Source: Calditrichia bacterium
GTDB taxonomy: Bacteria; Calditrichota; Calditrichia; RBG-13-44-9; J075
Direction: 5' to 3'
DNA length: 64,000 nucleotides
NCBI GenBank assembly: GCA_020634975.1
Contig: JACKAQ010000001.1
Location: forward strand, 3,383,272 to 3,447,271
Position 1 is the first letter of the stretch. Each line of letters begins with the position of its first letter. The notes under the pieces are model-generated. The model saw only the letters and a program-made list of their open reading frames with translations. It was not told where the DNA came from and did no database searches. Made by a program: the position numbers and the translations under genes. This document shows positions 6,313-63,683 of this stretch, in pieces.

Positions 6313-6390
6313 GGTAAACCAATTTAAAATAATAGTTTATGTGGTAGAGAAAATGTTGAAATCGATATACTTTTTGAGAAATAAACGGTA

Positions 6391-9840: not shown

Positions 9841-9963
9841 ACTATCATAGCCCCGTTAAAAAATTCACGACTTGTTACTCATCTATTATCGTGATTTATT
9901 AATATTTCATAACCCACTGGGTCAGTTTTTTTATCGGTTCGATCACAATGCTCTCAACTGTTT

Positions 9964-14042: not shown

Positions 14043-15770
14043 ATGAGTTGGTTTATTGGCGCATTTCCAAACGGAAACGGGATAATTTCCAAAGAATTCT
14101 TTTTGCAAAAAACAGCGTTTTTGCCCGAACACCGATTGAAAATTTGCACCAAACAACTTTGCCTGATTGCCGGTGGCATCGCAGAAACTTGCCAGTTTTC
14201 TGTTGCTGCGGATGAAACATCCGGCTGGTTGCGGCAGGTGTTGGCATTCATTTTGTCGATGGATTGCCAACATTGATGACCGGCGCAGATTGGTCAACTG
14301 TTTTTGCCGGAGCTGAGACGGATTTGTCATCGCTCAACGGGCATTTTGCCGCAATTGGCTGGCAAAACCGACGCATCCGTTTTTTCACTGATCCGCTGGG
14401 GTTGCGCAACATTTTTTCCGGGAAATTGATGGCGTCATGTGGTTTGCAAGTCGCATCGACTGGTTGGCAGGTATAAAAGCGGTTGCAAAATCGAATTGGA
14501 AACATTCAGTGCGCACTGGCTGTTGATTAATCAATTGTCGCAGGAAAGCGGTGTAACCGGTGTTCGGCGGCTTTGCCAGGGCGGTATCGCAACGGCTGAA
14601 CCGGGAAAGTTCACGCTGACAAACCACGAATGGTTGCCGGATAAATCGCAAAATTTTTCCGAAAAATCGATGCCGGATTTATTGCGCGATTTTACTGTTT
14701 ACGCTCGGCGGGGAAAAACGCTGTCGCTGGGGTTGTCCGGCGGGCTGGATTCGCGGGTGCTGCTGGCACAGTTGCTCAACCAACCGAAAAATGATTGGGC
14801 TGTACACCTTTAATGTTCCGGAGCACCCGGATCGAAAGATTGCCGGTAACATCGCTTCAGCATTGGCATCCCGCAAACGGTAATCCCCGCTTTTTCCCCG
14901 ATACCGAAAAGATTTTTGAAATACTAAAAAACTATGTTGGGCAAACTCGATTGTCATCGCCGGCATCTGGGTTTGTTAATGTTCAATTTACAGCTATTTA
15001 CACCACCTCGGAAAAATCGTTATCGATGGCGGTTCGGGCGAAATTGCCCGGCGACGCTATCTGAACATGCTGCTGCTGCGGGGTAAAACAGCGCTGCTGA
15101 ATGGCAATGTTTCGCAAATTTTGCCGTTTTTGCATGTGCATCGCGCCAATATTTTACTGCGAAGTTCAGTTACAACTGGAAAACAGCCTTGCTGGCGAAC
15201 TGGAAAATGTGTGGTCCCAGATGCCAGATATCCGGCATTTTGGTGTGGAAAACTGGCTGGATTTGTTCGCCATCCGCACCCGATTTCCCAATTTTGCAGC
15301 CTGGAGCAAAGCCGGTCAGATAGTGAACTGGTGAATTTCATGCCGTTTGTGCAACCGGCATTTCTCCAAAAATGTTCGAGACACCGGTTCGCGAACGGGA
15401 TAACGGGCGAATGTTCCGCAAAATTATCCGCGAAAATTATCCATCGCTGACCCGTTTTTCACTCGTGAAAGATGGCATCGTTTATCCGTATCCGTTTAAA
15501 ACCATTTCTGCATCGCTGTGGATGAAAGGAAAACGCAAATTTGGGAAAGTGTATGTCGAGCAAAATACAATTCATTTGCTAACTGCGATTGAGCCACAAA
15601 TTCGCGGTTTGCTGGATTCCGCAACGGTGCGACAGAGTAATTTTTATGATTATCAGATGTTGCAACAGATTGTTGATGGGTTTTACAGCGGCGATCAGCG
15701 CCATGCCAAAGCTTTGGATTGGTGGCTGGCTTTCGAGCTGTATCGGCAGCAAATTGAGCAAACAATGTAA
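14043..15770 (+). pseudogene. asparagine synthetase (AsnB) / lasso-peptide-cyclase-like gene disrupted by at least five frameshifts
   Basis: Consecutive ORF pieces in frames 0, 2, 0, 1, 2(?), 1 and 0 together read like one AsnB-family protein. The blocks in order are 'HFAAIGWQNRRIRFFTDPLGLRNIF' (GFA..W / DPLG), the PP-loop 'LSLGLSGGLDSRVLLAQL', 'LYTFNVPEHPDRKIAGNIASAL', 'IVIDGGSGEIARRRY' and a C-terminal region. No single frame is open for more than about 130 codons. Confidence 0.55.
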
Positions 15771-15981
15771 TGCATATTTTGCACTTTGGCGCAAAAAGGT
15801 AATTTTTACATCATTTTCCGCAACAAAATTTCGAATCAATTTTATTCTCATAAACATTTATTTATAAAGCAATTAGCGGCATGCTTTTTTGTGCCGGAAT
15901 GTTGTGGCATGTCAATTGTTTTAATTAGAGCATACTAATTTTTTTAACGGTAAAACTATTGCTAAATTTTCGGAGGCTCTT

Positions 15982-17202
15982 TTGAAACAATCTTTGACAG
16001 GAAACATTTTCCGGATGTTCAGTATTTTCTGCTGCATTTCTTTGCCGATGGTTGCCCAGGTTTGGACAATTCAAAACAGTGGCGTATCCGATCAGCTCAA
16101 AAGCGTTCACTTTGTCAGCAATTCTGAAGGCTGGGTTTGCGGCGATAACGGGGCATTGTTGCACACGGTAAACGCCGGTGAAACATGGTCCCGCGTTGCG
16201 GTTTTCAGCAGTGATCTGCACGAAGTTGCGTTTTTGGATGCGCAAACCGGCATCGTTTCCGGTGATGACGGGGCAATTTTGCGCACAACCGATGGCGGCG
16301 CAAACTGGAGCATTGTTAATAGCGGCACCAGTTCGCAATTGCGTGGCTGCGGTTGGGGTGCGGATGGCATTGCCTGGGCAGCAGGTCGTGATGGCGTGTT
16401 GCTAAAATCGACAGATTTTGGAGCAACCTGGACCCTTCAGCAAAGCGGCACAACCAACCGGATTCGCTCGATCGTGGGATACGGCAGCACTCACGCATGG
16501 GCAGTCGGCAACGATGGATTGATTCGCAGCACAGCAAATGGCAACAGTTGGGCAGCCCAAAACAGCCCGGTTTCGGACAATCTCGAAGATGTTCAATTTA
16601 TCAACACCAACGTGGGATTTGTTTCCGGCAGCGGCACAGTGCTGTTTACCGATAACGGCGGCGCAACCTGGGCAGTTCGTGGCAGTGGCGTCAGCGGCGA
16701 AACCAACGGATTGTATTTTACGGACGAATCCAACGGCTGGGTTGTGAATGAAATGGGGCAAATTTTCCACACAACCAACGGCGGCGTAACCTGGGCAACA
16801 GAAACAACCGGCACTTCCGGTATATTAAATGATGTGTTTGTTGCAGCCAACGGCGCTGGTTGGGCGGTTGGCGATAACGGCGTCATTTTGAAACATGCGC
16901 CACTCACCGGAATTGATGATGAGCCGGAAACCGCCGTTCGCGAAAATAAACTGGCTCAAAATTACCCGAATCCGTTCAATCCCGCGACAACAATTGCATT
17001 TAATTTGGCCAGTTATCAAAAGGTGCAATTAACCGTTTACAACATTGCCGGTCAACAGGTGGCGGAATTGATCAATCAACCGTTGATTGCGGGCGCGCAT
17101 TCGGTTACCTTTTCCGGGGAAAACTTGCCTTCCGGGGTTTATTTTTACGAACTTCGTGCCGGCAGTTTTAACGAAATTAAAAAAATGATGCTGGTGAAAT
17201 AA
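15982..17202 (+). CDS. secreted BNR/Ycf48-like beta-propeller protein with a C-terminal T9SS sorting domain
   Basis: It has a TTG start with an upstream GGAGG and a signal peptide. At least six 'G...T.DGG.TW' repeats of the BNR/Ycf48 type are present. The C-terminus 'NYPNPFNPATTIAF...VYNIAGQQVAEL...SGVYFYELRAG' is a classic type-IX secretion CTD. Confidence 0.75.
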   Translation: MKQSLTGNIFRMFSIFCCISLPMVAQVWTIQNSGVSDQLKSVHFVSNSEGWVCGDNGALLHTVNAGETWSRVAVFSSDLHEVAFLDAQTGIVSGDDGAILRTTDGGANWSIVNSGTSSQLRGCGWGADGIAWAAGRDGVLLKSTDFGATWTLQQSGTTNRIRSIVGYGSTHAWAVGNDGLIRSTANGNSWAAQNSPVSDNLEDVQFINTNVGFVSGSGTVLFTDNGGATWAVRGSGVSGETNGLYFTDESNGWVVNEMGQIFHTTNGGVTWATETTGTSGILNDVFVAANGAGWAVGDNGVILKHAPLTGIDDEPETAVRENKLAQNYPNPFNPATTIAFNLASYQKVQLTVYNIAGQQVAELINQPLIAGAHSVTFSGENLPSGVYFYELRAGSFNEIKKMMLVK

Positions 17203-17218
17203 ACCGGTCGATTATTTA

Positions 17219-17234
17219 TGGAACAATATTTGCA
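17219..17234 (+). promoter_or_regulatory. candidate sigma-54 (-24/-12) promoter TGGAAC-N5-TTGCA upstream of the cytochrome gene block
   Basis: The sequence is 'TGGAACAATATTTGCA', with GG and GC spaced by 10 nt as in the TGGCAC-N5-TTGCW consensus. There is one mismatch in the -24 hexamer. It lies about 75 nt upstream of the 17308 start. Confidence 0.4.
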
Positions 17235-17307
17235 AATCCAAACATGGTAACGTAATCCGGTGACACTTTGTATACCGGATTAACGGTTTTAATAACGATT
17301 AACAACA

Positions 17308-18219
17308 ATGATGCAGCCTGTGAAGAATACGCACACGAAAACCCAACGCGACTGGTTTAAAATTGGTTTGAAAATAGTTTATGTAATTTCGTTATCAATT
17401 TACGCATACTATTTGATAGACGGATTGGGATTTTACCAACTACCGTTTCAGGAACGTCCGCATCACGAGGCATACCGGAATTTGCGGTCCGCCGGATTGC
17501 GCGGGCACGGTTTTGGCATTATCGGTTCGCTGATGATGACGTTGATGCTCCTGTATTCTGTTCGGAAACGAACCAACTGGTTTGGCAAATGGGGCGCGAT
17601 CAGCCGTTGGTTGGATGTGCATATTTATCTCGGGATCATGGGACCACTACTGGTCATTTTGCATACTACCTTTAAGTTGAACGGCATTGTTGCGGTTAGC
17701 TTCTGGTCGATGATCGCGGTTTCCGGCAGCGGAATTTTGGGGAGATATTTGTATTTGCAAATTCCCCGGAACCGGCGCGGAGACGAACTCAGCCTGAAAG
17801 AAATTGAATCGCTCGATCAGGAATTTTCGGAAGAACTTTCCCGCGAACTGGGGCTGAAAAACGGTAAGCTTGCCCGGCTTCAGGAAATTGCCGGTGTGCA
17901 AAATGTAAACAAAGATGCCGGGTTGTTCAGTTTGCTGATGGGCATGCTCCGGTTCGACCTGTTCAGCTTTTTTCGTAAATACCGGCAGCAGCGGATGTTG
18001 CGGAAAGAATTCCAGCTGGACAGCCAGCAATTGAAAGCCGCAATCGAAATTTTGCATCGCAAACAATTGCTGGAACGCCGGATTTTACTGCTCAATCATG
18101 TTCAGCGGCTGTTCCATTATTGGCATGTGTTTCACAAGCCATTCGCGATTTTAATGTTTCTGATCATGATTTTACATATCGGCGTGGCAGTTTGGTTGGG
18201 TTACACATGGATTTTTTGA
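17308..18219 (+). CDS. polytopic membrane protein with conserved intramembrane histidines, possibly a b-type cytochrome / quinol-interacting subunit
   Basis: Several TM helices carry His pairs: 'WLDVHIYLGIMGPLLVILHTTF', 'LFHYWHVFHKPF' and 'MILHIGVAV'. The gene leads the multiheme cytochrome block. The functional call is an inference from the architecture only. Confidence 0.4.
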   Translation: MMQPVKNTHTKTQRDWFKIGLKIVYVISLSIYAYYLIDGLGFYQLPFQERPHHEAYRNLRSAGLRGHGFGIIGSLMMTLMLLYSVRKRTNWFGKWGAISRWLDVHIYLGIMGPLLVILHTTFKLNGIVAVSFWSMIAVSGSGILGRYLYLQIPRNRRGDELSLKEIESLDQEFSEELSRELGLKNGKLARLQEIAGVQNVNKDAGLFSLLMGMLRFDLFSFFRKYRQQRMLRKEFQLDSQQLKAAIEILHRKQLLERRILLLNHVQRLFHYWHVFHKPFAILMFLIMILHIGVAVWLGYTWIF

Positions 18220-18308
18220 CGCACTTCCGACAGCAGTGGACTCGGAGCGAACTCGAAGGGCAGATGCTAATTTTCATTTTCTTTATCAACGTTACGTAAA
18301 AAGGGAGT

Positions 18309-20027
18309 TTGACCATTCAATCAGCATGCATCTGGCAGCACATATTTTTTCGGTTTTGGCGAATCGTTTTTTTGTGGAATGTTTTTGCAGCAACCTTCGC
18401 AATTGCGCAGCTTTCGCCGGGCGATCTGCACCAGTCTCACGCCAAATTAGAGGGGTTGAGCAATTGCACCAAATGCCATTCCAGCGGCGCACAAATCGAT
18501 CTGGGAAAATGTCTCGATTGTCATAAATTGCTAAAACAGCGCATCGATTCGAACAAAGGGTTGCATGCCCGACCGGATTACAGTGATTGTGTCCACTGCC
18601 ACAACGACCATCACGGCAGAGATTTCGAAATGGTATTCTGGAAAGAGGGACAGGATAATTTTGACCATGATTTGACCGGTTACCGGCTGGAAGAAAAACA
18701 TGCCGAACTGAAATGCCGGGACTGCCATAAACCCGCCAATATCGCCGATCCGCAGCCGTTGCTCAATCAGGATAAAAATCTCGAACGCACATTCTTGGGA
18801 TTGCAGCAAGCCTGTTTAACCTGCCATGCGGATGAGCATCGCGGGCAATTGGCGGAAGATTGTCTGAAATGTCACACCTACAGCGGTTGGAAACCTGCCA
18901 ACCGTTTTGATCACGACAAAGCCAAATTCCGGCTGACCGGATTGCACCGGGATGTAAAATGTGTCGATTGCCACAAAGAAGAGCGTGATAATCGCACAGC
19001 GGACGACCCGACATTTGCCCGGTTTACGGGCATCGCATTTCAGAATTGCACAAACTGCCACGAAGATGTGCACCGGGGACAATTCGGACAAAATTGCCAA
19101 AAATGCCACAGCACTGCCGGCTGGAAAAAGCTGCTTGCCAATGCGGATTTCAATCATAATTTAACGCGATATCCATTGCGCGGCAAACACGCCACAGTTG
19201 CCTGCGAAAGCTGCCACAAACCCGGCATTCCGCGTCGCGGATTGGCATTTGCCAAATGCACCGATTGTCACACAGATTTTCACCTCGGGCAATTTGCGGC
19301 ACGTCCCGGCGGCATCGCCTGCGAAAATTGTCACACTGTCAAAGGGTTTTCTCCCGCGAACTTTACGTTCGACGATCACGCCAAAACGGATTATCCGTTG
19401 GAAGGCGCGCACCTTGCCATTCCCTGCATCGCCTGTCACGCGGGCACGCCAAACGGGCGTGGCAGTTCGCGATCAATGTTGCGGATCAACCGGTTTACCT
19501 TTGTGTCCACCAAATGCATCGATTGCCACAAAGACCCGCATTTCGGCGAAACCAAACGCTTTGTGGATATCAACGGCTGCGAAAGCTGCCATCGCGTGGA
19601 TAGCTGGCGGAGCATCGAATTCGATCACAGCCAAACCGATTTTGCACTGCTCGGCAAACATAACAGCACTGGCTGCATTCAATGCCACGTTCCGGCTGCG
19701 GAAACATCCGGCGGCAAAAGGATTCCGTTCCAGAATATGGCGCAGAATTGCCAACACTGTCACGCGGACAAACACAACGGTCAGTTTGTTACCACATTTG
19801 TTTCCGCCGGAAAAGAAATTCGAGGTACTGATTGCGCCCGGTGTCACGGCGAAGAAAATTGGCAACCGGTGAAATTTGATCATAATCGCGATTCCAAATT
19901 TTCGCTCGAAGGCGCACACGAAAAAGTTGCCTGCGAAGCATGTCACATGACTGTTGCGGAAGCGGACGTCACTTTCCGGCAATTTAAACCACTCGGCAGC
20001 GAGTGTTCGGATTGCCACGGCGGGTGA
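18309..20027 (+). CDS. multiheme c-type cytochrome, 20 CxxCH motifs, with an N-terminal hydrophobic anchor or signal
   Basis: The 20 counted CxxCH sites include CTKCH, CLDCH, CVHCH and CSDCH. Many are followed by a distal His. It has a TTG start with AAGGGAG immediately upstream. Confidence 0.85.
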   Translation: MTIQSACIWQHIFFRFWRIVFLWNVFAATFAIAQLSPGDLHQSHAKLEGLSNCTKCHSSGAQIDLGKCLDCHKLLKQRIDSNKGLHARPDYSDCVHCHNDHHGRDFEMVFWKEGQDNFDHDLTGYRLEEKHAELKCRDCHKPANIADPQPLLNQDKNLERTFLGLQQACLTCHADEHRGQLAEDCLKCHTYSGWKPANRFDHDKAKFRLTGLHRDVKCVDCHKEERDNRTADDPTFARFTGIAFQNCTNCHEDVHRGQFGQNCQKCHSTAGWKKLLANADFNHNLTRYPLRGKHATVACESCHKPGIPRRGLAFAKCTDCHTDFHLGQFAARPGGIACENCHTVKGFSPANFTFDDHAKTDYPLEGAHLAIPCIACHAGTPNGRGSSRSMLRINRFTFVSTKCIDCHKDPHFGETKRFVDINGCESCHRVDSWRSIEFDHSQTDFALLGKHNSTGCIQCHVPAAETSGGKRIPFQNMAQNCQHCHADKHNGQFVTTFVSAGKEIRGTDCARCHGEENWQPVKFDHNRDSKFSLEGAHEKVACEACHMTVAEADVTFRQFKPLGSECSDCHGG

Positions 20028-20202
20028 GAGTTGTGGACGCCGGGGACACCCGCATTCGCAGAGGCAGCAGTAAAGCTTTTTTGTCATTCCTGCGAATGCA
20101 GGAATCTCCCGGTTATTTCTTCGGGTATCATTTTATTTTTTTTCATAAGTTTTAATAAACTACTGTAAATAAACAAAATAGCACATAAAACAGAAGTGCC
20201 GA

Positions 20203-22152
20203 ATGAACAAATGGATTAACATCATCGCTGTGGTTTTGGGGTTGGCGCAAATGGTTTTTGGGCAAGAAAATGTGCAGAATCCGCAGAGCAATGTGCAGAA
20301 TCCGCACGGCAAAATAAAATGGGAATGTGTGGATTGCCACACTACCGAATCGTGGACGGAAATGAAAGACCCGATGGTTTTCCGCCACGAAGCAACCGGT
20401 TTTGCGCTGGTTGGCGCACACAAAATTACCCAATGCATGAGTTGCCACGAAAGCCCGAAATTTGCCGAAGTCGGTGCTGCCTGCGCCGATTGCCACACCG
20501 ATGTGCACCAGGGTGAATTTGGCATCAATTGCCAGAGCTGCCACACTGCGCAAACCTGGGAAAACCGGATCGACGTTCGGCAATTGCACGCGGCTCGCGG
20601 TTTTCCGCTATCCGGTGGACATGCAGTTGCGGATTGCCAAAGCTGCCACATCAGCGAACAGCGCAACGAATTTGCCGGTACCGCAAGCGCCTGTTTTTCC
20701 TGCCACATCGCGGAATTTAACGAAACGGTCGATCCAGATCACCAGCAAGCTGGATTTTCGCTGAACTGCGAAAATTGCCACCAACCCGCGGCAATCGCCT
20801 GGAATCAGAATGTGCGATTTGATCACTCGATTTTTGAATTACGCGGCGCCCACAAAACCACCGAATGCGCGGCATGTCACACCGAACAATTTACCGGAAC
20901 GCCACGCGAATGTTTCGCCTGTCACGAAGCGGATTTCCAGACAGCACAATTGCCCGATCACATTTCGCTCGGTTTCCCAACCGAATGCGCTGAATGCCAC
21001 AACGAAACGCGTTGGCAAGGCGCTGCATTCGATCATATTTCCGCCAGTGGATTTCCTCTGAACGGTGCGCACAGCACGATTTTCTGCGCCGAATGCCATG
21101 TGGACAATCAGATGACCGGATTGCCGCGTGATTGCTTCGGTTGCCACAACGATGATTATCAGGAAACCACCGATCCCAACCACGTTCTCGGAAATTTCCC
21201 GCAGGATTGTTTGGTTTGCCATAACGAATTAACCTTTGTTCCGGCAGATTTCGATCACAATTTGACCCAGTTTCCGCTTACCGGCGCACATGCGACGCTT
21301 CAGTGCGAAAGCTGCCACGAAACCGGCGATTTCACCGCGTTGCCAACGGAGTGCTATTCTTGCCATCAACCGGATTTTGAGGGCACAACCGATCCGGGGC
21401 ATGTGCAAAATAACTTCAGTTTCGATTGTACGCTTTGTCACAGCACTTCCGCATGGGAACCGGCGACGTTTGACCATAACGCCACCGATTTCCCGCTGAC
21501 CGGTGCGCACATCGGGCTGGATTGTTTGAGCTGCCACAGTTCCGGGTATGCCGGAACCCCAACCGCCTGCGTTTCCTGTCACGAAGATGATTTTCAGGCG
21601 ACGACGGATCCCAACCACATCGCTGCTGCATTTCCGCTGGAATGCGAAGTTTGCCACAGCACGGTAGCGTGGGAGCCCGCAATATTTGATCACGATAACA
21701 CAGATTTTCCGTTGACCGGTGCGCACACCGGTGTGGATTGCAACAGTTGTCACGCCAGCGGATACACCGGCACGCCGACAGCATGTGTCAGTTGCCATCA
21801 ATCCGATTTTGACAACACAACCGATCCCAACCACATTGCGGCAAACTTTCCGGTTCAGTGCGAAGTTTGCCATAGCACCACCGCATGGGAGCCGGCAAAC
21901 TGGAATCACGATCAGCTGTATTTCCCGATTTACTCCGGCGAGCACCGCAACGAGTGGGATACCTGCGCGGATTGTCACCTCGACCAGACCAATTTTGCCA
22001 CTTTCGAATGCATTTTCTGTCACGAGCACCGCCAATCGGAAATGGATGACGAGCACAACGACGTGAACAACTACGTTTACGAAAGCACCGCTTGCTACAA
22101 TTGCCACCCGGACGGCCGGGAATTGATGCAATTGGATCGGATGCGTAATTAG
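20203..22152 (+). CDS. multiheme c-type cytochrome, 25 CxxCH motifs, secreted, with a modular tri-heme repeat architecture
   Basis: It has a signal peptide. There are 25 CxxCH sites. A module of about 65 aa, 'FDH..TDFPLTGAH....C.SCH..GY.GTPT.C.SCH..DF..TTDPNH', recurs at least six times. The conserved C-terminus is 'CIFCHEHRQSEMDDEH...CYNCHPDGRE'. Confidence 0.9.
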   Translation: MNKWINIIAVVLGLAQMVFGQENVQNPQSNVQNPHGKIKWECVDCHTTESWTEMKDPMVFRHEATGFALVGAHKITQCMSCHESPKFAEVGAACADCHTDVHQGEFGINCQSCHTAQTWENRIDVRQLHAARGFPLSGGHAVADCQSCHISEQRNEFAGTASACFSCHIAEFNETVDPDHQQAGFSLNCENCHQPAAIAWNQNVRFDHSIFELRGAHKTTECAACHTEQFTGTPRECFACHEADFQTAQLPDHISLGFPTECAECHNETRWQGAAFDHISASGFPLNGAHSTIFCAECHVDNQMTGLPRDCFGCHNDDYQETTDPNHVLGNFPQDCLVCHNELTFVPADFDHNLTQFPLTGAHATLQCESCHETGDFTALPTECYSCHQPDFEGTTDPGHVQNNFSFDCTLCHSTSAWEPATFDHNATDFPLTGAHIGLDCLSCHSSGYAGTPTACVSCHEDDFQATTDPNHIAAAFPLECEVCHSTVAWEPAIFDHDNTDFPLTGAHTGVDCNSCHASGYTGTPTACVSCHQSDFDNTTDPNHIAANFPVQCEVCHSTTAWEPANWNHDQLYFPIYSGEHRNEWDTCADCHLDQTNFATFECIFCHEHRQSEMDDEHNDVNNYVYESTACYNCHPDGRELMQLDRMRN

Positions 22153-22334
22153 TTTTCAAAGCAAAAAACAAGTTGAAAGATATTCAAGAAATAACGCCAC
22201 GGAGACACAGAGTGCACAGAGCATTGAAAATAAATAACTTAAAAAGCCCTCTGTTTTCTCTGTGTCTGTGGTTTCGCAAAATTTTTTAACGTTTACTCAG
22301 AAATAAAATTTTTACCCAAAGCAAGGTTTGCAAA

Positions 22335-23957
22335 ATGAAACAGATGTTGAAAATCGCAATTGCGCTATGGCTCGCATTCACGTTGTTTGGCGTGTCGGCG
22401 CAGGAAAAAACCACCCGGTACGAGGTTCGCTATGTTTCTGCGGAAAATGTATATCTTGCGGCGGGCAGCCAGGTTGGGCTGGCGATTGGCGATACGCTGG
22501 AAATCCGCGATCGCGGTAAAATGATTGCCCGGGTGCTGGTCACTTACGTTGCGGAACAATCGTCGAGCTGTCAGATTTTGACCGCCACAGGCGAAATCCG
22601 TCCGGGAATGGGCGCGGTTTTGACTGGCGCAGCGCCGCAAACCGAACCCGGTTTACCCGGTGAAACGGAATCCGGCGACGTATCGAACGAAACAAAAAAG
22701 CGCACCGTCACTGTCCGGACAAAACAAAAATCCCAAAAATCCACCGATCTCAGCGGCAGCATTTCGCTGCGCTATTACACGCTGAACGATCTCACCGAAC
22801 GCAATCTCGATTTTAAACAGCCCACATTTCGGATCAATTTGCGGGCAAAACGGTTGTGGGGAAAAGATTACACACTGCGCATCCACACCCGCACCCGCCA
22901 CGATGAGCGCACCCGTGCCTATCGCGAAGACGTGCCCAAAAGCGAATGGCGCAACCGGATTTACCAGTTTGCACTCGGTTACGAAAACCGCGATGCCCGG
23001 GTAAATTTCCGGCTCGGGCGCATCACCACCAACCGGCTGAGCGGCGTTGGCTACATCGACGGATTGCAGTTGCAATTCAACCTTTCGCCATCGGTTGATG
23101 TGGGAATTTTGGGCGGCACGCAGCCGAACTGGCGCGATTCTGCACCGCAAACGAATGTTCAAAAAGCTGGTGCATTTCTTCATTTTCAAAACGGCGAGAT
23201 GCGCGGTCGCTTTTTCGAAACGACCGTTGCCGCCGCCGGCGCGTATGCGGATGGCGTGGTCAGCCGGGAGTTTTTGTACTGGCGTAGCAATTTTCGTTCG
23301 CCGGGCGGATTCAGCTTTTTCCACATGCTGGAAATGGACATGAATCGCAATTGGCGAAAAGAAAAAACCGGCAAAAGCGCGGTGCTCTCCAATCTTTATC
23401 TGTCCGCGCGGCAGCGTATTTCCGATGCGGTTACTGCCGGCGTTACTTTCGATAACCGGCAAAATTACTGGACTTACGAAATTCGCACATTGGCAGACAG
23501 TCTGTTCGACGATGCGCTCCGAACCGGATTTCGCGGCAATCTTTCCGTTAAATTGCCCGGCAGGATTTACGTTTTCGCCAACGGCGGTTTGCGCAAAATT
23601 GAACGGGATAATGTTACCACAACCTCGTACGCTATCGGCTTGAATCGCAGCGGATTGCCCGGCAACACATCGCTGCGGCTGAACGGCTCCGGTTTTTCGA
23701 ACAAGAATACCAACGGCACGAATATCGGCGGCGATATCGGCAAAAGCTTCTCCGCCGGTCACCGGATCGATATCGGTTATTCGCGCTACGCCTATTCGTT
23801 CGATTGGGACGGCATCAATCGCGTGACCGATACGTACAGCGCGCAAGCCTATTTGATGCTGCCGGCACGGCTGTTTTTCAGCGGGCTGTATCAATACGAT
23901 CTGGGCGATGATATCGAAGGTTTCCGAATGTATCTGGAATTCGGGTATCGTTTTTAA
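22335..23957 (+). CDS. outer-membrane beta-barrel protein encoded between the two 25-heme cytochrome paralogs (putative porin component of a porin-cytochrome complex)
   Basis: It has a signal peptide and about 540 aa. The alternating-hydrophobic strand pattern ends 'YLEFGYRF', a terminal Phe. The position is analogous to mtrB/ombB-type genes. Confidence 0.65.
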   Translation: MKQMLKIAIALWLAFTLFGVSAQEKTTRYEVRYVSAENVYLAAGSQVGLAIGDTLEIRDRGKMIARVLVTYVAEQSSSCQILTATGEIRPGMGAVLTGAAPQTEPGLPGETESGDVSNETKKRTVTVRTKQKSQKSTDLSGSISLRYYTLNDLTERNLDFKQPTFRINLRAKRLWGKDYTLRIHTRTRHDERTRAYREDVPKSEWRNRIYQFALGYENRDARVNFRLGRITTNRLSGVGYIDGLQLQFNLSPSVDVGILGGTQPNWRDSAPQTNVQKAGAFLHFQNGEMRGRFFETTVAAAGAYADGVVSREFLYWRSNFRSPGGFSFFHMLEMDMNRNWRKEKTGKSAVLSNLYLSARQRISDAVTAGVTFDNRQNYWTYEIRTLADSLFDDALRTGFRGNLSVKLPGRIYVFANGGLRKIERDNVTTTSYAIGLNRSGLPGNTSLRLNGSGFSNKNTNGTNIGGDIGKSFSAGHRIDIGYSRYAYSFDWDGINRVTDTYSAQAYLMLPARLFFSGLYQYDLGDDIEGFRMYLEFGYRF

Positions 23958-24105
23958 CCCGAATTTACGTAAATTGCTGAAAATTATGGAAACAGCATCT
24001 TCTCTACGAAGAACCGCATGAGGGGATATTTATTATAGATTTGATACTAATCGCGCAAAATGACGGCTCATAAATTTTGTGCAAAGGCGTGATGGGAAGA
24101 TAAAC

Positions 24106-26031
24106 ATGCGTTGGGCAGCGGTTATTCTGATTGTTGTCGTTTGGGTTAGCAATGGTTTTTCGCAAAATAATTCAAACAATCCCCACGGGAAAATCAAATG
24201 GGATTGCATCAATTGCCACACAACGGATTCGTGGACAACGTTGAAAAAGCAAATGGATTTTGATCACGATGACACCCGGTTTTCGCTGGAAGGAGTGCAT
24301 CAAACCACCGATTGTATGAGCTGCCACACCCTCAAATTTGCCGATGCAACCCGCGCTTGCCTCGATTGTCACACAGATGCACACGAAGGCAATTTGGGCA
24401 TGTATTGCCAGAATTGCCATACACCGCAAAGCTGGAACGATCCCCAAAATATGTTGCAAATTCACGCTGAACGGGGATTTCCGTTGTCCGGTGCACATGC
24501 GATTTCCGATTGTCAGTCCTGCCACACAACCGAGCTGTTCAACGAGTTTTCCGGCACCGCGAACAGCTGTTTCACCTGCCACATGGACGATTTTACCCAA
24601 ACCGAAAATCCAGATCACCAAAGCGCCGCATTTTCGATGCAGTGCGAAACCTGCCATCTTCCCGCTGCCATCAATTGGCAGCAGAGCGTGCGATACGAAC
24701 ATCCGCCGCAATTTGCTATCAACGGTGCGCACCGCTCGCTGGACTGCGCCGAATGCCACAGCGAAACCTTTGCCGGAACGCCGGATATGTGTTTCGATTG
24801 CCATTCAGAAGCGTTCCGCAGCGTAGAAATGCCTGACCACGCGGCGATGGGTTTCCCGACTGAATGCGCAGTTTGCCACTCGGAAAACGGTTGGCAGGGT
24901 GCCGCATTCGATCACGTTCAGGCCAGCGGATTTGAGTTGAACGGCGCACATGCGATTGCCCAATGTGTCGATTGCCACGCCGATAACCAATTGGCAGGAT
25001 TGCCGCGCGACTGTTTCGGCTGCCACGAAACGGAATTTCAGGAAGCGCTGGAACCAAATCACGTTGCCAATAATTTTCCGATGGAATGCCAAAATTGCCA
25101 TGTGGAAGTTGCCTGGCAGCCCGCCACATTTGATCACGATTTGACGGATTTCCCGCTTTCCGGGGCGCATGCGACAATCCAGTGCGCGGATTGCCACGAA
25201 AATGGCGAATTCATCGCGCTGCAAACCGACTGTTACGCCTGCCATCAGATTGATTTTGAAAACGCTAACGAACCTGATCATGTGGCAAATAACTTCAGTG
25301 TTGTGTGCACGGATTGCCACACAGATCTCGCGTGGGAACCGGCGACGTTTGATCACAACGCGACAGATTTCCCGCTGACCGGTGCGCATGTTTCGGTGAA
25401 CTGCATCGATTGCCACAGCGCTGGTTACACCGGTACGCCGACAGCATGTTTCGCCTGCCATGAAACCGATTTTCAAAACACAACCAATCCAAACCACGTT
25501 GCTGCGGGGTTTCCGCTGGAATGCGAGGTGTGCCACACTACAACAGAGTGGCAATCTGCAACATATGATCACGACCAAACAGGCTATCCGCTAACCGGGG
25601 CACATAATTTGCTAACCTGTAATGACTGTCATTCGGGCGGTTATTCCGGCACACCGACGGTTTGTGTGGGTTGCCATTTGGATGATTATCAGGGCACAAC
25701 CGATCCGGATCATGCGGCAGCCGGATTTCCCACAGAGTGCGAAACGTGCCACAATACCACAAGGTGGGATCAGACAAACTGGAATCATGATCAGTTGTAT
25801 TTTCCGATTTACTCCGGGGAGCATCGAAATGAGTGGAATACTTGCGCCGACTGCCATGTGGACCAGAATAATTTTGCGGTTTTCGAGTGCATTTTCTGCC
25901 ACGAACACCGTCAATCAAAGATGGATGATGAACACGATGGTGTAACCGGTTATGTTTACGAAAGCGGTGCCTGTTATGCCTGTCACCCGGATGGTCGCGA
26001 GCGAATGCGACTGGAGCGCATCAGGCAATAG
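24106..26031 (+). CDS. multiheme c-type cytochrome, 25 CxxCH motifs; paralog of 20203..22152
   Basis: The module order is the same and the termini are near-identical ('NPHGKIKW.C..CHTT.SWT', 'CIFCHEHRQSKMDDEH...CYACHPDGRE'). An AGGGAAG SD precedes the ATG at 24106. The ORF track's earlier ATG at 24079 is less likely. Confidence 0.9.
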   Translation: MRWAAVILIVVVWVSNGFSQNNSNNPHGKIKWDCINCHTTDSWTTLKKQMDFDHDDTRFSLEGVHQTTDCMSCHTLKFADATRACLDCHTDAHEGNLGMYCQNCHTPQSWNDPQNMLQIHAERGFPLSGAHAISDCQSCHTTELFNEFSGTANSCFTCHMDDFTQTENPDHQSAAFSMQCETCHLPAAINWQQSVRYEHPPQFAINGAHRSLDCAECHSETFAGTPDMCFDCHSEAFRSVEMPDHAAMGFPTECAVCHSENGWQGAAFDHVQASGFELNGAHAIAQCVDCHADNQLAGLPRDCFGCHETEFQEALEPNHVANNFPMECQNCHVEVAWQPATFDHDLTDFPLSGAHATIQCADCHENGEFIALQTDCYACHQIDFENANEPDHVANNFSVVCTDCHTDLAWEPATFDHNATDFPLTGAHVSVNCIDCHSAGYTGTPTACFACHETDFQNTTNPNHVAAGFPLECEVCHTTTEWQSATYDHDQTGYPLTGAHNLLTCNDCHSGGYSGTPTVCVGCHLDDYQGTTDPDHAAAGFPTECETCHNTTRWDQTNWNHDQLYFPIYSGEHRNEWNTCADCHVDQNNFAVFECIFCHEHRQSKMDDEHDGVTGYVYESGACYACHPDGRERMRLERIRQ

Positions 26032-26067
26032 TTCAATTGAGGATAAAAGGAGTTTAAATTTCAAACG

Positions 26068-27411
26068 ATGGAATCTATGATTATTTATTTAGCAACAGCG
26101 GCTTTGGCTGTTATCATTTTTATACCTTATTTTGTCAAATTTCGTAAAAAACAACATGAAAATTATGAGCGCCGGAAAGAGGCTGAAACGCTGGGTGTAA
26201 TTCGACCGCAGTCGCAATTTCCACTAATTGACCAGTCACTGTGCATCGGTTGCGGTTCCTGTGTACTGGCCTGTCCGGAAGGTGATGTTTTGGGTGTAGT
26301 GCACGGCAAAGCCATGATTATCAACGGTTTACGCTGTGTTGGTCACGGGCATTGCGAAACAGCTTGTCCTGTTGGTGCCATCAAAGTCGGGCTTGGCGAC
26401 ATCACCACCCGCGATGATATTCCGGTTCTGGACAGCGGTCACCAAAGCAATGTACCCGGATTATATGTTGTTGGAGAATTGGGTGGGTTATCGCTCATCC
26501 GGAACGCCATTGCCCAGGGGCAAAATGCCGTTCGGGAATTGGCCAAAACGTTGCCGGCCAATCGTGATCGTACCATTCGGGATTTGCTGATTGTAGGTGC
26601 AGGCCCGGCAGGATTGACCGCAGCACTCACCGCCAAAGAGCAGGGGTTGAATTATCTGTTGATTGATCAGCAGGAACCGGGCGGCACCATTTTGCAATAT
26701 CCCCGACGCAAATTGGTGATGACCCAGCCGATCAATATACCGCTTCACGGGCGGCTCGACAAAACAGAATACACCAAAGAAGATTTGCTGGAAATCTGGC
26801 AGCGAATTATCAACAAACATCAATTGAATATCCAAACCGGTGAGCGGCTGACCGGGATAAATCCGGTTGGTGATGAATTTGAATTGGTCACCCAAAACAA
26901 CTCTTTTTATGCCCGAAAAGTAGTGTTGGCGTTGGGCAGGCGCGGCACACCGCGAAAATTGGGCGTGCCCGGTGAGAAAATGTCCAAAGTCGCCTATCAG
27001 TTGATCGATGCGCAATCGTATCAAAATGCCCATATTTTGGTGGTTGGCGGCGGCGATAGCGCTGTCGAAGCTGCCATTGCCCTGGCTCGCCAAAAAGGAA
27101 ATATCGTTTCCATTTCCTATCGCAAAAATAAATTTTTCCGCATCAAAAAGAAAAACGAAGATCGCATTATGCGATTGATAAAAGAGAAAAAAGTGCTGCC
27201 GTTGTTCGAATCAACGGTATTGGAAATAGAGCCGGATCGCGTGATTTTGCAGCAAGATGTGGAAATGTTTGAGATCCCCAACAATTATGTTTTTATTTTT
27301 GCCGGCGGAATTCCGCCGTTCAAAATGTTGCAGGAAATGGGTATCCGTTTTGGCGGCGAAGCCAAAACATTTGCGCCACCGGTAGCTGTTCCGTCGGGTT
27401 TCAGCAACTAA
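26068..27411 (+). CDS. membrane-anchored 2x[4Fe-4S] ferredoxin domain fused to an FAD/NAD(P)-binding pyridine-nucleotide oxidoreductase (thioredoxin-reductase-like fold)
   Basis: It has an N-terminal TM helix. 'CIGCGSCVLACPEGD' and 'CVGHGHCETACPVGA' are ferredoxin-type clusters. 'LLIVGAGPAGLTAALTA' and 'HILVVGGGDSAVEAAIALA' are dinucleotide-binding motifs. Confidence 0.75.
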   Translation: MESMIIYLATAALAVIIFIPYFVKFRKKQHENYERRKEAETLGVIRPQSQFPLIDQSLCIGCGSCVLACPEGDVLGVVHGKAMIINGLRCVGHGHCETACPVGAIKVGLGDITTRDDIPVLDSGHQSNVPGLYVVGELGGLSLIRNAIAQGQNAVRELAKTLPANRDRTIRDLLIVGAGPAGLTAALTAKEQGLNYLLIDQQEPGGTILQYPRRKLVMTQPINIPLHGRLDKTEYTKEDLLEIWQRIINKHQLNIQTGERLTGINPVGDEFELVTQNNSFYARKVVLALGRRGTPRKLGVPGEKMSKVAYQLIDAQSYQNAHILVVGGGDSAVEAAIALARQKGNIVSISYRKNKFFRIKKKNEDRIMRLIKEKKVLPLFESTVLEIEPDRVILQQDVEMFEIPNNYVFIFAGGIPPFKMLQEMGIRFGGEAKTFAPPVAVPSGFSN

Positions 27412-27465: not shown

Positions 27466-28503
27466 TCAATAACTCGCCTCATCCAACTTCACTTTTCCGC
27501 TGAACGTTTTGTAAACGAAAATGGTGTAGCCCGCAACCAGCGGCGCACCGATGGCCACAATGGTCATCATAATTTCCAGCGTTTTTTGGGAAGACGCCGC
27601 ATTGTACACATCAATATTGTACGCCGGATCGACCGTGGACAGCAGGATATTCGGATACAACTCGATGGCGGAAAGGATCAGCAAAAAACTGATGGTCAGC
27701 GATGAAAAAATGAATGCCTGCAAAAATTTGCGCTGCGATGCCAGTCGCGGCAAATTGGCGATGCTCAAAAACGCCAGTACCGGCAGTAAAAAAAGGATCT
27801 GGTTCGAGCGGAAATCGTCGGACAAATGCGGTATGTAAAGCAATGTATAAAGCGTTGTAATACTGAAAGTTACGATAAAAAATATCATCGCGTATTTTTG
27901 CAGTTCGAGCAACTGTTTGTAGAGTTTGCCCTCCGTTTTCAGCAGCAAATAAATCGCGCCATGCGACATAAACAGCGTCAGCGATGTCAGCCCGACCAGA
28001 ATCGAATACAAATTCAAAAATTCAAAAAAACCGGCGCCCTGATACACATAATCCGGGCCGATGGCGATACCCTGCAACACATTCCCCAACACAACGCCGA
28101 GCAAAAACGCGAGCATAATGCTGGAAATGGAATACGAAACGTCCCACATTTGCCGCCACCAGCGCATCGGTTCTTTGCTGCGAAATTCAATCGAAATTGC
28201 GCGAAAAATGATGAACAGGAGGAACAGCATAAACGGCACATACATCGCGGAAAATAATGTTGCGTACACCACCGGAAATCCCGCAAACAACGCGCCGCCG
28301 CCGATAACCAGCCACACTTCGTTGCCGTCCCAAACCGGTCCGACCGCGTTCAGCGCAATCCGCCGGCTTTCCTCTTTTTTGAAAAACAAATGAAATGCGC
28401 CGGCGCCAAAATCAAAACCGTCCAAAATGGCGTATCCGGAAAACAGCGCCCCGACCACCAAAAACCACCATGTGGGATAATCTATACCAAATAATGTTTC
28501 CAT
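27466..28503 (-). CDS. cydB: cytochrome bd ubiquinol oxidase subunit II
   Basis: The N-terminus 'WWFLVVGALFSGYAILDGFDFGAGA' is characteristic of CydB. The protein is polytopic. The gene sits 3 bp downstream of cydA. Confidence 0.9.
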   Translation of the reverse strand: METLFGIDYPTWWFLVVGALFSGYAILDGFDFGAGAFHLFFKKEESRRIALNAVGPVWDGNEVWLVIGGGALFAGFPVVYATLFSAMYVPFMLFLLFIIFRAISIEFRSKEPMRWWRQMWDVSYSISSIMLAFLLGVVLGNVLQGIAIGPDYVYQGAGFFEFLNLYSILVGLTSLTLFMSHGAIYLLLKTEGKLYKQLLELQKYAMIFFIVTFSITTLYTLLYIPHLSDDFRSNQILFLLPVLAFLSIANLPRLASQRKFLQAFIFSSLTISFLLILSAIELYPNILLSTVDPAYNIDVYNAASSQKTLEIMMTIVAIGAPLVAGYTIFVYKTFSGKVKLDEASY

Positions 28504-28506
28504 CGT

Positions 28507-29886
28507 TTATTTTCCAGTTAAAATGGTTGTTATTCCTTTAGTTAAAGGTCTGTCTTCAATTTCTGATTCATCGAACGGGCCGTGTTTGATTTTTTTATCG
28601 AGCAGATATAAAAATAGCGCAAACAATAACGCGTAAATCAGGAAAAACATGATCAGTGAAAACAGAACCTGGTTGGCGGTTACCGATGCCGAAAGTGCGT
28701 CCGATGTGCGCAGTAATCCGTAAACGACCCACGGTTGCCGACCCATTTCCGCGGTAAACCAACCGACCTGATTGGCAATCTGCGGCAGTAGCACCGCGAA
28801 TACGAATATTTTGAGTAACCATTTGTTTTCGAATAACTTACCGCGCCACAGCAGAAAGCTGGCCAGCAACGTTAGCCCGATCAGCGCCATCCCGATTGCC
28901 ACCATAATATGATAAAATTGGAACACCGCATTCACCTGCGACGGGCGATCTGTTTCGGGAAACGCGTTTAGTCCGGTCACCGGTGCGGTGACATCGAAAT
29001 TCAGCAAAAACGATAAACCGCCGGGAATTTTCAACCCGGTAACTTCCTGATTTTCAGCATCCACCCAGCCAAAAATATACAGGTCAGCCGGGGCGCTGGC
29101 ATCGAAATGTCCCTCCAGCGCCGCCAGTTTTGCGGGTTGGTTTACCGCAACGCCTTCCGCCGATTTGTGTCCGGTGAACAGTTGTCCCAGCGAAAAAATC
29201 GTGGCAACAACCAGCGCAATGCTGAACGCTTTTTTGGAAATTTCGACATATCGCCCTTTCAGCAAATAGTAGGCATGAACGCTCAGCACCAAAAATGCGC
29301 CGGCAAGAAATGCACCCAACCAAACGTGCAGCAGCCTGTCCACGCTGGACGGGTTGAACACCATTGCCCAAAAATCGGTGATTTCCGCGCGGGCGCGAAT
29401 GCCTTCACCAACGATGTGAAATCCCGCCGGCGTTTGCTGCCAGCTATTTGCCACGACAATCCAGACGGCGGAAAACATGGAGCCGAGAAATACGCCGATG
29501 GTCGAAATGAGGTGAACTTTCGGTGAAACGCGGTTCCAGCCGAACAGCAGCACCCCGAGAAATCCGCTTTCCAGCGCGAACGCAAAAATGCCTTCGGCCG
29601 CCAACGCGCTGCCGAACACATCGCCCACATATCTGGAATAGGTTGCCCAGTTGGTGCCGAATTCAAATTCCATTACAATTCCGGTAACTACACCAATGCC
29701 GAAAGTTAACGCGAAAATTTTCGTCCAGAAACGGGCGAGAATTTCGTATTTTTTATCTTTCGTCCGGACGTACTGGCTTTCGAAAATAACCATGAGCAAC
29801 CCCAAACCGATGCTCAACGGCGGGTAGATATAATGAAATGCCACAGTAAATGCAAACTGGATTCTGGCTAATATTTCTACATCCAT
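28507..29886 (-). CDS. cydA: cytochrome bd ubiquinol oxidase subunit I
   Basis: The N-terminus '[28 protein letters not shown]' is characteristic of CydA. The Q-loop region and multiple TM helices are present. Confidence 0.9.
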
Positions 29887-61500: not shown

Positions 61501-61733
61501 ATCCAAACCTGCTTTGATGGAAATTGCTTTTTTTAGTACTGATTGGAAGTCGGAACAGGAAGCGCTGCTGCCGGTTACGGCAAGCCGGATTCTAATTGAG
61601 TGAACCACTGTTGCAAGACAAGATACCACAATCCGCGATACTTTTCAACGATGGTTTCCGAGAAGACTAAAATTATTTAATTGTGGGGTAATTTTGTGAA
61701 AAAACGGCGGAGACGAAATATCTGTTTTTTTCG

Positions 61734-63683
<1,950 letters not shown>

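Follow-up and report, generated by a model that had tools for sequence, protein, structure and literature searches.

Porin-cytochrome conduits, in which a multiheme cytochrome insulated by a β-barrel carries electrons over the outer membrane, are represented by MtrCAB, MtoAB and PioAB of Shewanella, Sideroxydans and Rhodopseudomonas and by the Pcc (OmbB-OmaB-OmcB) and Ext clusters of Geobacter. Two further, predicted types, PCC3 and PCC4, belong to neutrophilic Fe(II)-oxidising Proteobacteria (He et al. 2017, PMC5566968; Hoover et al. 2023, PMC10734462). Here we describe a six-gene version of a conserved cassette in a 64,000-nucleotide stretch of a Calditrichia genome (assembly GCA_020634975.1, contig JACKAQ010000001.1, positions 3,383,272 to 3,447,271), the whole of which is called the window. 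Its genes encode an inner-membrane protein (IMP, g1), three multiheme c-type cytochromes (g2, g3 and g5), an outer-membrane β-barrel (g4) and a membrane-anchored flavoprotein (FLV, g6). From the cofactor motifs of these proteins, the fold of the barrel and the co-conservation of five components across genomes we infer the function of the cassette. It is predicted to be a widespread and uncharacterised type of porin-cytochrome conduit, set apart by the proteins that would feed it from the cytoplasm and the inner membrane. That it forms some kind of electron conduit across the outer membrane appears to us highly probable. A trans-envelope conduit had been proposed in an initial annotation of the sequence; this core idea is the best explanation of the genes, although several of its details proved wrong.

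The closest published concept is that of PCC3 and PCC4, to which the cassette is likened by descriptive criteria and not by sequence. In both cases a porin gene lies beside very large, repeat-built, heme-dense cytochromes, one of them periplasmic and nearly constant in size (21–27 hemes there, 20 here), the second highly variable (10–85 hemes there, 10–70 here). The conserved IMP of PCC3 and PCC4 is a protein of about 300 residues with five transmembrane (TM) helices, an SGxxG motif on TM4 and a WxxxHx13H motif on both TM3 and TM5 (PMC5566968), a definition that also describes g1. He et al. compared this IMP with the ferric-reductase domain and with cytochrome b, and the PCC3 and PCC4 IMPs have no significant sequence similarity to each other (PMC5566968). 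PCC4, like the cassette, has extra Fe-S redox genes beside the IMP; nothing on their domain content was found in the supplement of He et al. An analogous conduit model has been published for PCC3 and PCC4 (PMC5566968, PMC10734462), and all of these systems, the cassette included, are purely predicted. The differences are equally clear. The hosts here belong to phyla of the Fibrobacteres-Chlorobi-Bacteroidetes (FCB) group instead of the Proteobacteria, the barrel is predicted to have 22 strands compared with up to 42 in PCC3, and no extracellular lipoprotein cytochrome is predicted. Moreover, a membrane-anchored flavoprotein with Fe-S, FAD and NAD(P)H sites is a core component here but not part of PCC3, and the variable cytochromes follow a strict triheme-module rule (3n+1 hemes) and share a C-terminal module.

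MtrCAB contains a 26-strand porin of the MtrB/PioB family, unlike the 22-strand g4, and a decaheme cytochrome of the MtrA/DmsE family, whereas the cytochromes here carry 20 and 25 hemes in c7-type triheme units. No protein of the cassette corresponds to an extracellular decaheme lipoprotein (MtrC or OmcA), as no lipobox is present, and the inner-membrane input is predicted to be a b-heme protein with a flavoprotein and not CymA. The lack of an extracellular lipoprotein cytochrome is shared with MtoAB and PioAB. The Geobacter Pcc and Ext systems resemble the cassette in being porin-cytochrome gene clusters, found in related phyla, whose hemes are packed in the c7/c3 manner. Geobacter is also known for long 'nanowire' cytochromes made of c7 repeats (a weak TIGR04257 hit is found here). 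However, Pcc combines an 8-heme periplasmic cytochrome with a 12-heme lipoprotein cytochrome, whereas the cassette combines 20-heme and 3n+1-heme cytochromes with no lipoprotein and has dedicated inner-membrane and cytoplasmic components; the porins of the two were set side by side by description. The Pcc of Ignavibacterium album has a 14-heme periplasmic cytochrome with atypical heme motifs (PMC4245776), which do not occur here. Mentions in passing exist of a 'pcc-like' system in a Caldithrix metagenome-assembled genome (MAG) (PMC6137239) and of 'mtrAB' in Zixibacteria (PMC4411801), and OmbB-like clusters have been mentioned for Ignavibacteria (PMC7399161, PMC4245776). Our literature searches found no paper describing the five-gene cassette in Calditrichota, Zixibacteria or Ignavibacteria.

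The g4 family alignment contains no conserved stretch, and the g1 alignment served as the seed for a genome scan with a degenerate pattern, covering one genome per GTDB species. The IMP pattern was found at 271 loci, in 271 species-level genomes from at least four phylum-level groups; the best 80 of these loci belong to Calditrichota, Zixibacteria, Ignavibacteria and one Polyangiaceae MAG. We fetched 89 loci and labelled their open reading frames (ORFs) with hidden Markov models of the barrel and the IMP, a phmmer search with g6, and CXXCH counts. The cassette order is highly uniform: IMP, a 20-heme cytochrome, a second cytochrome of variable size, an optional 9–13-heme cytochrome, barrel and FLV. 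IMP, barrel and FLV are all present at 60 loci, which come from Calditrichota, Zixibacteria, Ignavibacteria and a single Polyangiaceae genome, and IMP and FLV accompany the barrel in 60 of the 64 barrel-containing loci, which supports the earlier proposal that both are encoded in cis as parts of the system. The porin gene adjoins multiheme cytochrome genes both in the window, where g4 lies between g3 and g5, and in the 64 related loci. The FLV gene stands directly beside the IMP gene in all three loci in which the order is rearranged (L006, L079 and L083), and at L006 the two genes overlap by 13 nt. Flanking genes vary from locus to locus.

Among the IMP loci without a barrel, 23 of 24 are cut by a contig end 0–5.5 kb downstream, the exception being L050, and such ends usually fall inside a multiheme cytochrome gene. 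Repeat-built cytochromes seem to break short-read assemblies, so that MAGs probably show too few hemes and too few complete cassettes. In 52 of the 58 complete cassettes the cytochrome that follows the IMP has exactly 20 hemes. The other cytochromes carry 10 to 70 hemes, and the full-length ones, which possess the C-terminal module, form a 3n+1 series with the recurrent values 10, 13, 16, 19, 22, 25, 28, 31, 37, 46, 49, 52, 55, 58 and 70. At L034, from a MAG labelled Caldithrix abyssi, the IMP is accompanied by a 17-heme cytochrome. A cytochrome gene downstream of the barrel gene occurs only in the window and in its closest relative, locus L010; g5 is a lineage-specific extra copy. The cytochrome/barrel/cytochrome order, previously taken as a hallmark, is neither the characteristic order of Mtr or Pcc clusters nor the norm of this family. 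The description of a barrel flanked by large paralogous 25-heme cytochromes is correct for the window, although its post-barrel member is specific to this lineage. Nor is the system, which had been supposed to be unusual, unique: it is widespread in Calditrichota, Zixibacteria and Ignavibacteria and was conceptually anticipated by PCC3 and PCC4 (PMC5566968).

Coordinates of the cassette genes and of neighbouring features in the window.
Feature	Position	Strand	Length
g1, inner-membrane protein (IMP)	17308-18219	+	303 aa
g2, 20-heme c-type cytochrome	18309-20027	+	572 aa
g3, 25-heme c-type cytochrome	20203-22152	+	649 aa
g4, outer-membrane β-barrel, 22 strands predicted	22335-23957	+	540 aa
g5, second 25-heme c-type cytochrome, paralogue of g3	24079-26031	+	650 aa
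g6, membrane-anchored Fe-S flavoprotein (FLV)	26068-27411	+	447 aa
Large hybrid histidine kinase/response-regulator proteins (four in the two regions)	2605-8121 and 57406-63683	-	
Tandem gene 1	8692-9840	-	382 aa
Tandem gene 2	9964-11109	-	381 aa
Tandem gene 3	11250-12401	-	383 aa
Region without a long ORF	~14250-15800	+	~2 kb
BNR/Ycf48-like β-propeller protein	15982-17202	+	
Cytochrome bd oxidase subunits II and I (cydB, cydA)	27466-29886	-	
Sigma-54 activator	37839-38840		
Large ORF	46785-53582	-	2265 aa

The ORF list and translations confirm six consecutive plus-strand genes. The start of g1 is the first start codon past the upstream stop; the block start at 17219 given in the initial annotation is intergenic and out of frame. 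The CXXCH counts of g2, g3 and g5 (20, 25 and 25) add up to exactly the 70 c-heme sites first reported. No CXXCH is found in seven other translated proteins (g1, g4, g6 and four neighbours), and the heme-site count is therefore far beyond chance. Each cytochrome has 25–26 further His residues (25 in g2, 26 in g3), enough for bis-His ligation of each heme. All three proteins match c7/c3 families. For g2, which has a Sec signal peptide and no lipobox, the Pfam matches are Cytochrome_C7, Cytochrom_CIII and Cytochrom_c3_2, and Cytochrome_C7 hits g3 in 8 separate stretches. The g3 and g5 proteins are 61% identical across their full length, and their CXXCH motifs recur with a periodic spacing of 32-35/15-16/25, from which both are read as strings of tandem triheme c7-like modules. 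Their heme density, one per about 26 residues, exceeds that of the MtrA-type wires discussed by He et al. (PMC5566968). The last ~85 residues of g3 and g5 form a distinct module with three CXXCH motifs, which also ends nearly every cytochrome of the family other than the 20-heme one. A domain II/IV match to PF22113 (44–48 bits) reflects similarity of heme packing only, and no match to the g3 sequence was found in the PDB. In L010, which lies on the chromosome of the nearest public genome (OZ245730.1, a Calditrichia MAG of 6.28 Mb with ~92% nucleotide identity to the window), the g5 orthologue (16628-20308) has 49 hemes in 1226 residues, compared with 25 hemes in 650 residues in the window, and its additional part repeats window region 25252-25572. 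Either triheme modules are truly gained and lost at a fast rate or the repeats have collapsed in one of the assemblies.

Models of known cytochrome systems score poorly. TIGR03508, the DmsE/MtrA family, gives 58, 36 and 40 bits for g2, g3 and g5, all under the cut-off of 192, and the HmcA hits reach 27–53 bits against a cut-off of 400. A periplasmic nitrite- or sulfite-type reductase was also considered and rejected. The three cytochromes contain no CXXCK, CX3CH or CX4CH motif and no other catalytic heme motif, the NrfH, HmcA and Qrc models remain far below their cut-offs, and no nitrite- or sulfite-type reductase gene is a cassette member in any of the 60 full-set clusters. The concern raised in the initial annotation, that homologous clusters might be linked to such chemistry, is not borne out by these clusters.

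The g4 protein was modelled with AlphaFold2 on a 70-sequence alignment (mean predicted local distance difference test score, pLDDT, 89). The model consists of a signal peptide, an N-terminal periplasmic β domain (residues 29–98), a disordered linker (102–131) and 22 antiparallel strands running from residue 138 to the C-terminal ...GYRF, and it confidently predicts a 22-strand outer-membrane barrel. The terminal-Phe barrel of about 540 residues that had been proposed is in this way upheld, and the alternative of a soluble periplasmic protein is not. No match to g4 was found in Pfam or NCBIfam; FlgT_C matches the N-terminal domain weakly in 10 of 70 homologues. It has more than 120 full-length homologues, every one annotated as hypothetical and almost all encoded in MAGs of Calditrichota. 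A family profile run against 1.84 billion representative proteins recovered 3281 clusters (50% identity) at E<=0.001 and 1165 at E<=1e-30, and g4 therefore represents a large unnamed family. The notion of an MtrB homologue found no support: neither sequence homology nor close fold homology to the 26-strand porins of the MtrB/PioB family was found.

The closest solved folds to g4 are substrate porins and TonB-dependent receptors, the longest alignments being to 22-strand receptors of the latter kind (FhuA, 341 residues; FusA, 370 residues). This would suit a purely periplasmic system, in which the cytochromes are an electron store or capacitor, or the reductase of a soluble substrate, g4 is an ordinary substrate porin, and no protein-borne electron transfer crosses the outer membrane. 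The same possibility is favoured by the absence of lipoprotein or secretion signals from the cytochromes: g2, g3 and g5 have neither a lipobox nor the C-terminal tail of the type IX secretion system (T9SS), and the same holds for 146 of the 149 cytochromes of related loci. He et al. also doubted an extracellular action of IMP-associated multiheme cytochromes without porins (PMC5566968). However, in every phylum the barrel gene keeps strictly to the company of cytochrome genes and no other setting is known for its family, the barrel carries its own periplasmic domain of a docking type, and a catalytic heme motif is absent. In addition, cytochromes with 46–70 hemes (1136–1725 residues of linear c7 repeat) would far exceed the width of the periplasm at about 1 nm per heme. 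We therefore regard a periplasm-only function as very improbable, and a conduit through the barrel as the better reading.

On the inner-membrane side, g1 had been described as a His-rich polytopic membrane protein, and indeed it contains five predicted TM helices and 12 His residues. TM3 carries W101xxxH105x13H119 and TM5 carries W272xxxH276x13H290; TM4 contains the sequence SGILG, starting at S141, and a cytoplasmic helical insert of about 115 residues separates TM4 from TM5 (AlphaFold2 pLDDT 86). The Trp and both His residues of each motif are unchanged throughout the 65 homologues. The protein itself scores 19.6 bits against DUF4405, below the cut-off of 26.7. Across the family the matches are weak but consistent: at E<=0.01, DUF4405 is hit by 36 of the 65 members (best E 6.9e-7), Ferric_reduct by 8 and Ni_hydr_CYTB, a cytochrome b561 family, by 4. 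Binding of heme b has been demonstrated for one DUF4405 protein, that of an Oscillospiraceae bacterium (PMC11334425). The motifs predict that g1 is a di-heme b transmembrane electron carrier. The two bis-His b-heme sites predicted here, in which two TM helices each carry a pair of His residues spaced by 13 residues, are also the signature of the NOX/FRE/STEAP and DUF4405/MsrQ/PepSY proteins. No match to the g1 sequence was found in the PDB, and fold searches with the g1 model gave no convincing solved structure and no significant match to any solved protein of the ferric-reductase-domain group (NOX, STEAP, MsrQ, cytochrome b561). Residues 49–63 of g1 (window ~17452-17496), with the sequence ERPHHExYRxLRPAG, form a predicted periplasmic loop that is nearly invariant over the 65 homologues (R50, Y56 and G63 are invariant). 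This loop could serve to dock the 20-heme cytochrome or to bind a quinone.

The flavoprotein g6 begins with a TM helix, predicted N-out/C-in, that precedes a K/R-rich stretch, and the remainder of the protein is therefore placed in the cytoplasm. Its Pfam matches are Pyr_redox_3 (146 bits), Pyr_redox_2 (95 bits) and several Fer4 families, in line with the membrane-anchored flavoprotein first proposed. The nearest solved structures are YpdA/Bdr (7a7b, E 7e-25), thioredoxin reductases (TrxR) and ferredoxin-NADP reductases of the TrxR type; the NAD(P)H Rossmann motif is present, and g6 has the two-Rossmann FAD and NAD(P)H fold of the TrxR/YpdA group. A thioredoxin or bacillithiol-disulfide reductase was rejected. 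The flavin domain has no redox-active CxxC, and the equivalog models TIGR04018 and TIGR01292 give 168 and 89 bits, below their cut-offs of 340 and 343. All 7 Cys residues of g6 lie inside the Fe-S motifs CxxCxxCxxxCP and CxGHGxCxxxCP. The ferredoxin domain is predicted to hold two clusters, but with 7 Cys the 2x[4Fe-4S] assignment made initially requires a conserved His to be a ligand of the second one. Of 59 homologues, 58 keep the residue concerned, His93, and 57 keep the N-terminal TM helix. A His-ligated cluster is the exit-cluster type of hydrogenases.

The pairing of these two proteins bears on how electrons enter the cassette. In the initial annotation g1 was called a dedicated quinol-side module. 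Nothing marks it as such: its signature is that of a di-heme b carrier, its partner is an NAD(P)H flavoprotein, and g1 is more likely a partner of that flavoprotein than a quinol module. A conduit fed by quinol can nonetheless be formulated, in line with what He et al. proposed for the IMP of PCC3 and PCC4. In it g1 would be a quinol:cytochrome c oxidoreductase that draws on the menaquinol pool and has the function of CymA, CbcL or ImcH, and with the flavoprotein as an accessory such as an NAD(P)H:quinone reductase or a repair or maturation reductase; the periplasmic and outer-membrane steps would be unchanged. He et al. treat the same WxxxHx13H signature as that of a quinone-active cytochrome b (PMC5566968), di-heme b proteins of the clan often carry quinone sites, and the conserved periplasmic loop of g1 has no assigned role. 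Furthermore, one Calditrichaceae species (L001–L003, three assemblies) has the IMP, the cytochromes and the barrel but no flavoprotein gene adjacent to them. Against this stand the retention of the flavoprotein in nearly all barrel loci, its position as direct neighbour of the IMP whenever the order is rearranged, and the failure to identify a quinone-binding motif in g1. A conserved TM anchor and a conserved His-ligated cluster of the exit type are also hard to explain for an unrelated accessory. Quinol feeding thus seems unlikely to us, and input from NAD(P)H through g6 and g1 is preferred.

Such an input has parallels among known redox systems. In NOX, FRE and STEAP proteins, electrons likewise run from a cytoplasmic NAD(P)H flavoenzyme over the membrane to an outside acceptor. 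The five TM helices of g1 and the single helix of g6 would together reproduce their layout, with the N-terminus inside and six TM helices followed by a dehydrogenase, split over two chains and with another dehydrogenase. The differences from NOX/FRE/STEAP are that the system is divided between two polypeptides, that the dehydrogenase is of the TrxR/YpdA type with an inserted two-cluster ferredoxin domain and not of the plant-FNR type, and that g1 has the cytoplasmic insert, matches Pfam only below threshold and gave no significant structural match to a solved member. Type-B succinate:quinone and quinol:fumarate oxidoreductases, such as Wolinella FrdABC, are alike in their sequence of flavoprotein, Fe-S clusters and a five-helix di-heme b anchor, but the predicted substrate here is NAD(P)H instead of succinate. 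Hmc and Tmc of sulfate reducers link cytoplasmic Fe-S proteins to periplasmic multiheme cytochromes; in contrast to these, the cassette has no CCG-domain protein, and its HmcA hits are far below cut-off. No sequence relationship was detected with any of these oxidoreductases and complexes.

In the model that we propose, the six genes would form a complete conduit from the cytoplasm to the cell surface with about 70 hemes. Held at the cytoplasmic face by its single TM helix, g6 would oxidise NAD(P)H at FAD and pass the electrons through two Fe-S clusters, the second with the conserved His ligand. Two stacked b hemes of g1, ligated by H105/H276 on the cytoplasmic side and by H119/H290 on the periplasmic side, would then move the electrons over the inner membrane, a route that would bypass the quinone pool. 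The FAD/Fe-S protein and the di-heme b protein stay paired, and the former has a TM anchor and a predicted His-ligated cluster; these features are the reason for proposing NAD(P)H-driven transmembrane export. The 20-heme g2, constant in length over the family, would bridge the periplasm as a wire. Multiheme cytochromes extend by roughly 1 nm per heme, and 20 hemes would accordingly span the periplasm. The same argument has been made for the 21–27-heme PCC3 cytochrome (PMC10734462). The 3n+1-heme g3, and here also g5, would dock through the C-terminal three-heme module at or inside the barrel and take the electrons over the outer membrane, with the variable triheme-repeat part exposed as a short wire. 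A fixed barrel-docking end and a tunable exposed end fit the constant C-terminal module and variable length of these cytochromes. The terminal acceptors would probably be insoluble or large, such as Fe(III) and Mn(IV) oxides, humics or partner cells, and the likely role would be disposal of reducing equivalents in anoxic sediment and not proton-motive respiration in its own right.

Two things favour outward flow: the low potential of NAD(P)H at the inner end of the chain, and a membrane potential that promotes the export of electrons. The opposite direction was also considered, with electrons donated from outside the cell, by Fe(II), by a mineral acting like a cathode or by a syntrophic partner, and taken up through the barrel, the cytochromes and g1 to oxygen via cydAB or to NAD(P)+ via g6. 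PCC3 and PCC4 were defined in the genomes of Fe(II) oxidisers and modelled as inward conduits (PMC5566968, PMC10734462), conduits of the Mtr/Mto type are reversible (PMC10734462), and cydAB lies directly downstream of g6 in convergent orientation. However, cydAB is not a conserved neighbour in the other loci with listed flanks, and the host phyla are described mostly as heterotrophs or fermenters (PMC5317091, PMC9769843). The reduction of NAD(P)+ (about -320 mV) by Fe(II) would be strongly uphill, and the membrane potential would oppose inward electron flow. Inward uptake is therefore quite improbable, and we retain the outward direction.

Several points weigh against the NAD(P)H-driven outward model. 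The score of g1 is under the DUF4405 threshold, a quinone site on g1 is possible, and the Calditrichaceae species mentioned above lacks an FLV gene beside the barrel. The surface delivery of any part is unexplained, since the cytochromes have neither lipobox nor T9SS tail. Finally, NAD(P)H-driven export in the outward direction dissipates the membrane potential, which leaves the physiological benefit unproven. With these points taken into account, we give the full model, including NAD(P)H input and outward flow, an even chance of being correct. A more far-reaching version, put forward tentatively and in our view rather doubtful, is that of an NAD(P)H:extracellular-acceptor oxidoreductase, NOX-like but split in two and independent of quinones. 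The TM helix of g6 would here complete a six-helix di-heme b bundle with g1, and an unbroken chain of FAD, two Fe-S clusters, two b hemes, 20 c hemes and 3n+1 c hemes would lead through the barrel to the surface. The length of the outer wire would be set by gain and loss of triheme modules, as in the 25 and 49 hemes of two genomes that are 92% identical, and the system would be a distinct fourth type of extracellular electron transfer in diderm bacteria, common in the Calditrichota, Zixibacteria and Ignavibacteria of anoxic sediments.

The surroundings of the cassette were also inspected. The β-propeller protein directly upstream of g1 has a T9SS C-terminal sorting domain, which, together with the identity of the nearest genome, confirms the FCB background that had been suspected. 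T9SS-tailed proteins (Kelch, ASH) also occur near the cassette in L007–L009, with no consistent partner among the loci. The cydB and cydA genes lie 55 nt past g6. Both cydAB and the upstream β-propeller protein were rejected as parts of the system, since neither is conserved beside the cassette in any of the other loci with listed flanks. A scan for promoters and terminators gave counts at chance level and thus no indication of operon boundaries. The only Rfam hit within the window is one tRNA, and no riboswitch was found close to the gene cluster. The four hybrid kinase/response-regulator proteins contain GAF, HAMP, CHASE8, Y_Y_Y and AraC domains. Just upstream of the cassette in L008 and L009 are genes for a GAF/sigma-54 activator and for a Ser/Thr kinase, which hints at a possible regulatory link between such kinases or activators and the cassette.

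Three further regions of the window were noted. The region without a long ORF holds several short plus-strand ORFs in different frames, one of them with a PP-loop motif (LSGGLDSRVLL), and looks like a frameshifted asparagine-synthase-like gene, that is, a pseudogene or a product of sequencing errors. The three tandem genes have no Pfam match; the proteins of the first two (8692-11109) share 65% identity, and both start with a signal peptide and finish with ...SF. These features suggest that the tandem genes encode a family of outer-membrane barrels that is as yet uncharacterised. The 2265-residue ORF sits where the window is richest in GC (0.57, compared with ~0.47 elsewhere) and is followed by a 446-residue protein containing FlgD_ig and a 1044-residue TPR protein.

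The cassette may bear on the part that Calditrichota, Zixibacteria and Ignavibacteria play in the redox cycling of Fe, Mn and humics. These three little-studied phyla abound in sediments, marine as well as freshwater, and on bioelectrode biofilms. The porin-cytochrome concept itself is already known; the cassette described here is a clean, abundant and unannotated case of it. Current annotation tools have no model for the g4 barrel or the g1 IMP, and the five-gene marker cassette would let the capacity be mapped in metagenomes. The 3n+1 rule and the constant 20-heme wire constitute a natural experiment on how the length of a heme wire is set. If the input is indeed NAD(P)H-driven and quinone-independent, the cassette would give diderm bacteria a novel route for unloading reducing power on minerals, and would also be a compact self-contained module for engineering electroactive cells. 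With the cassette defined, the question of whether these phyla respire minerals or dispose of electrons can be put to a direct test.

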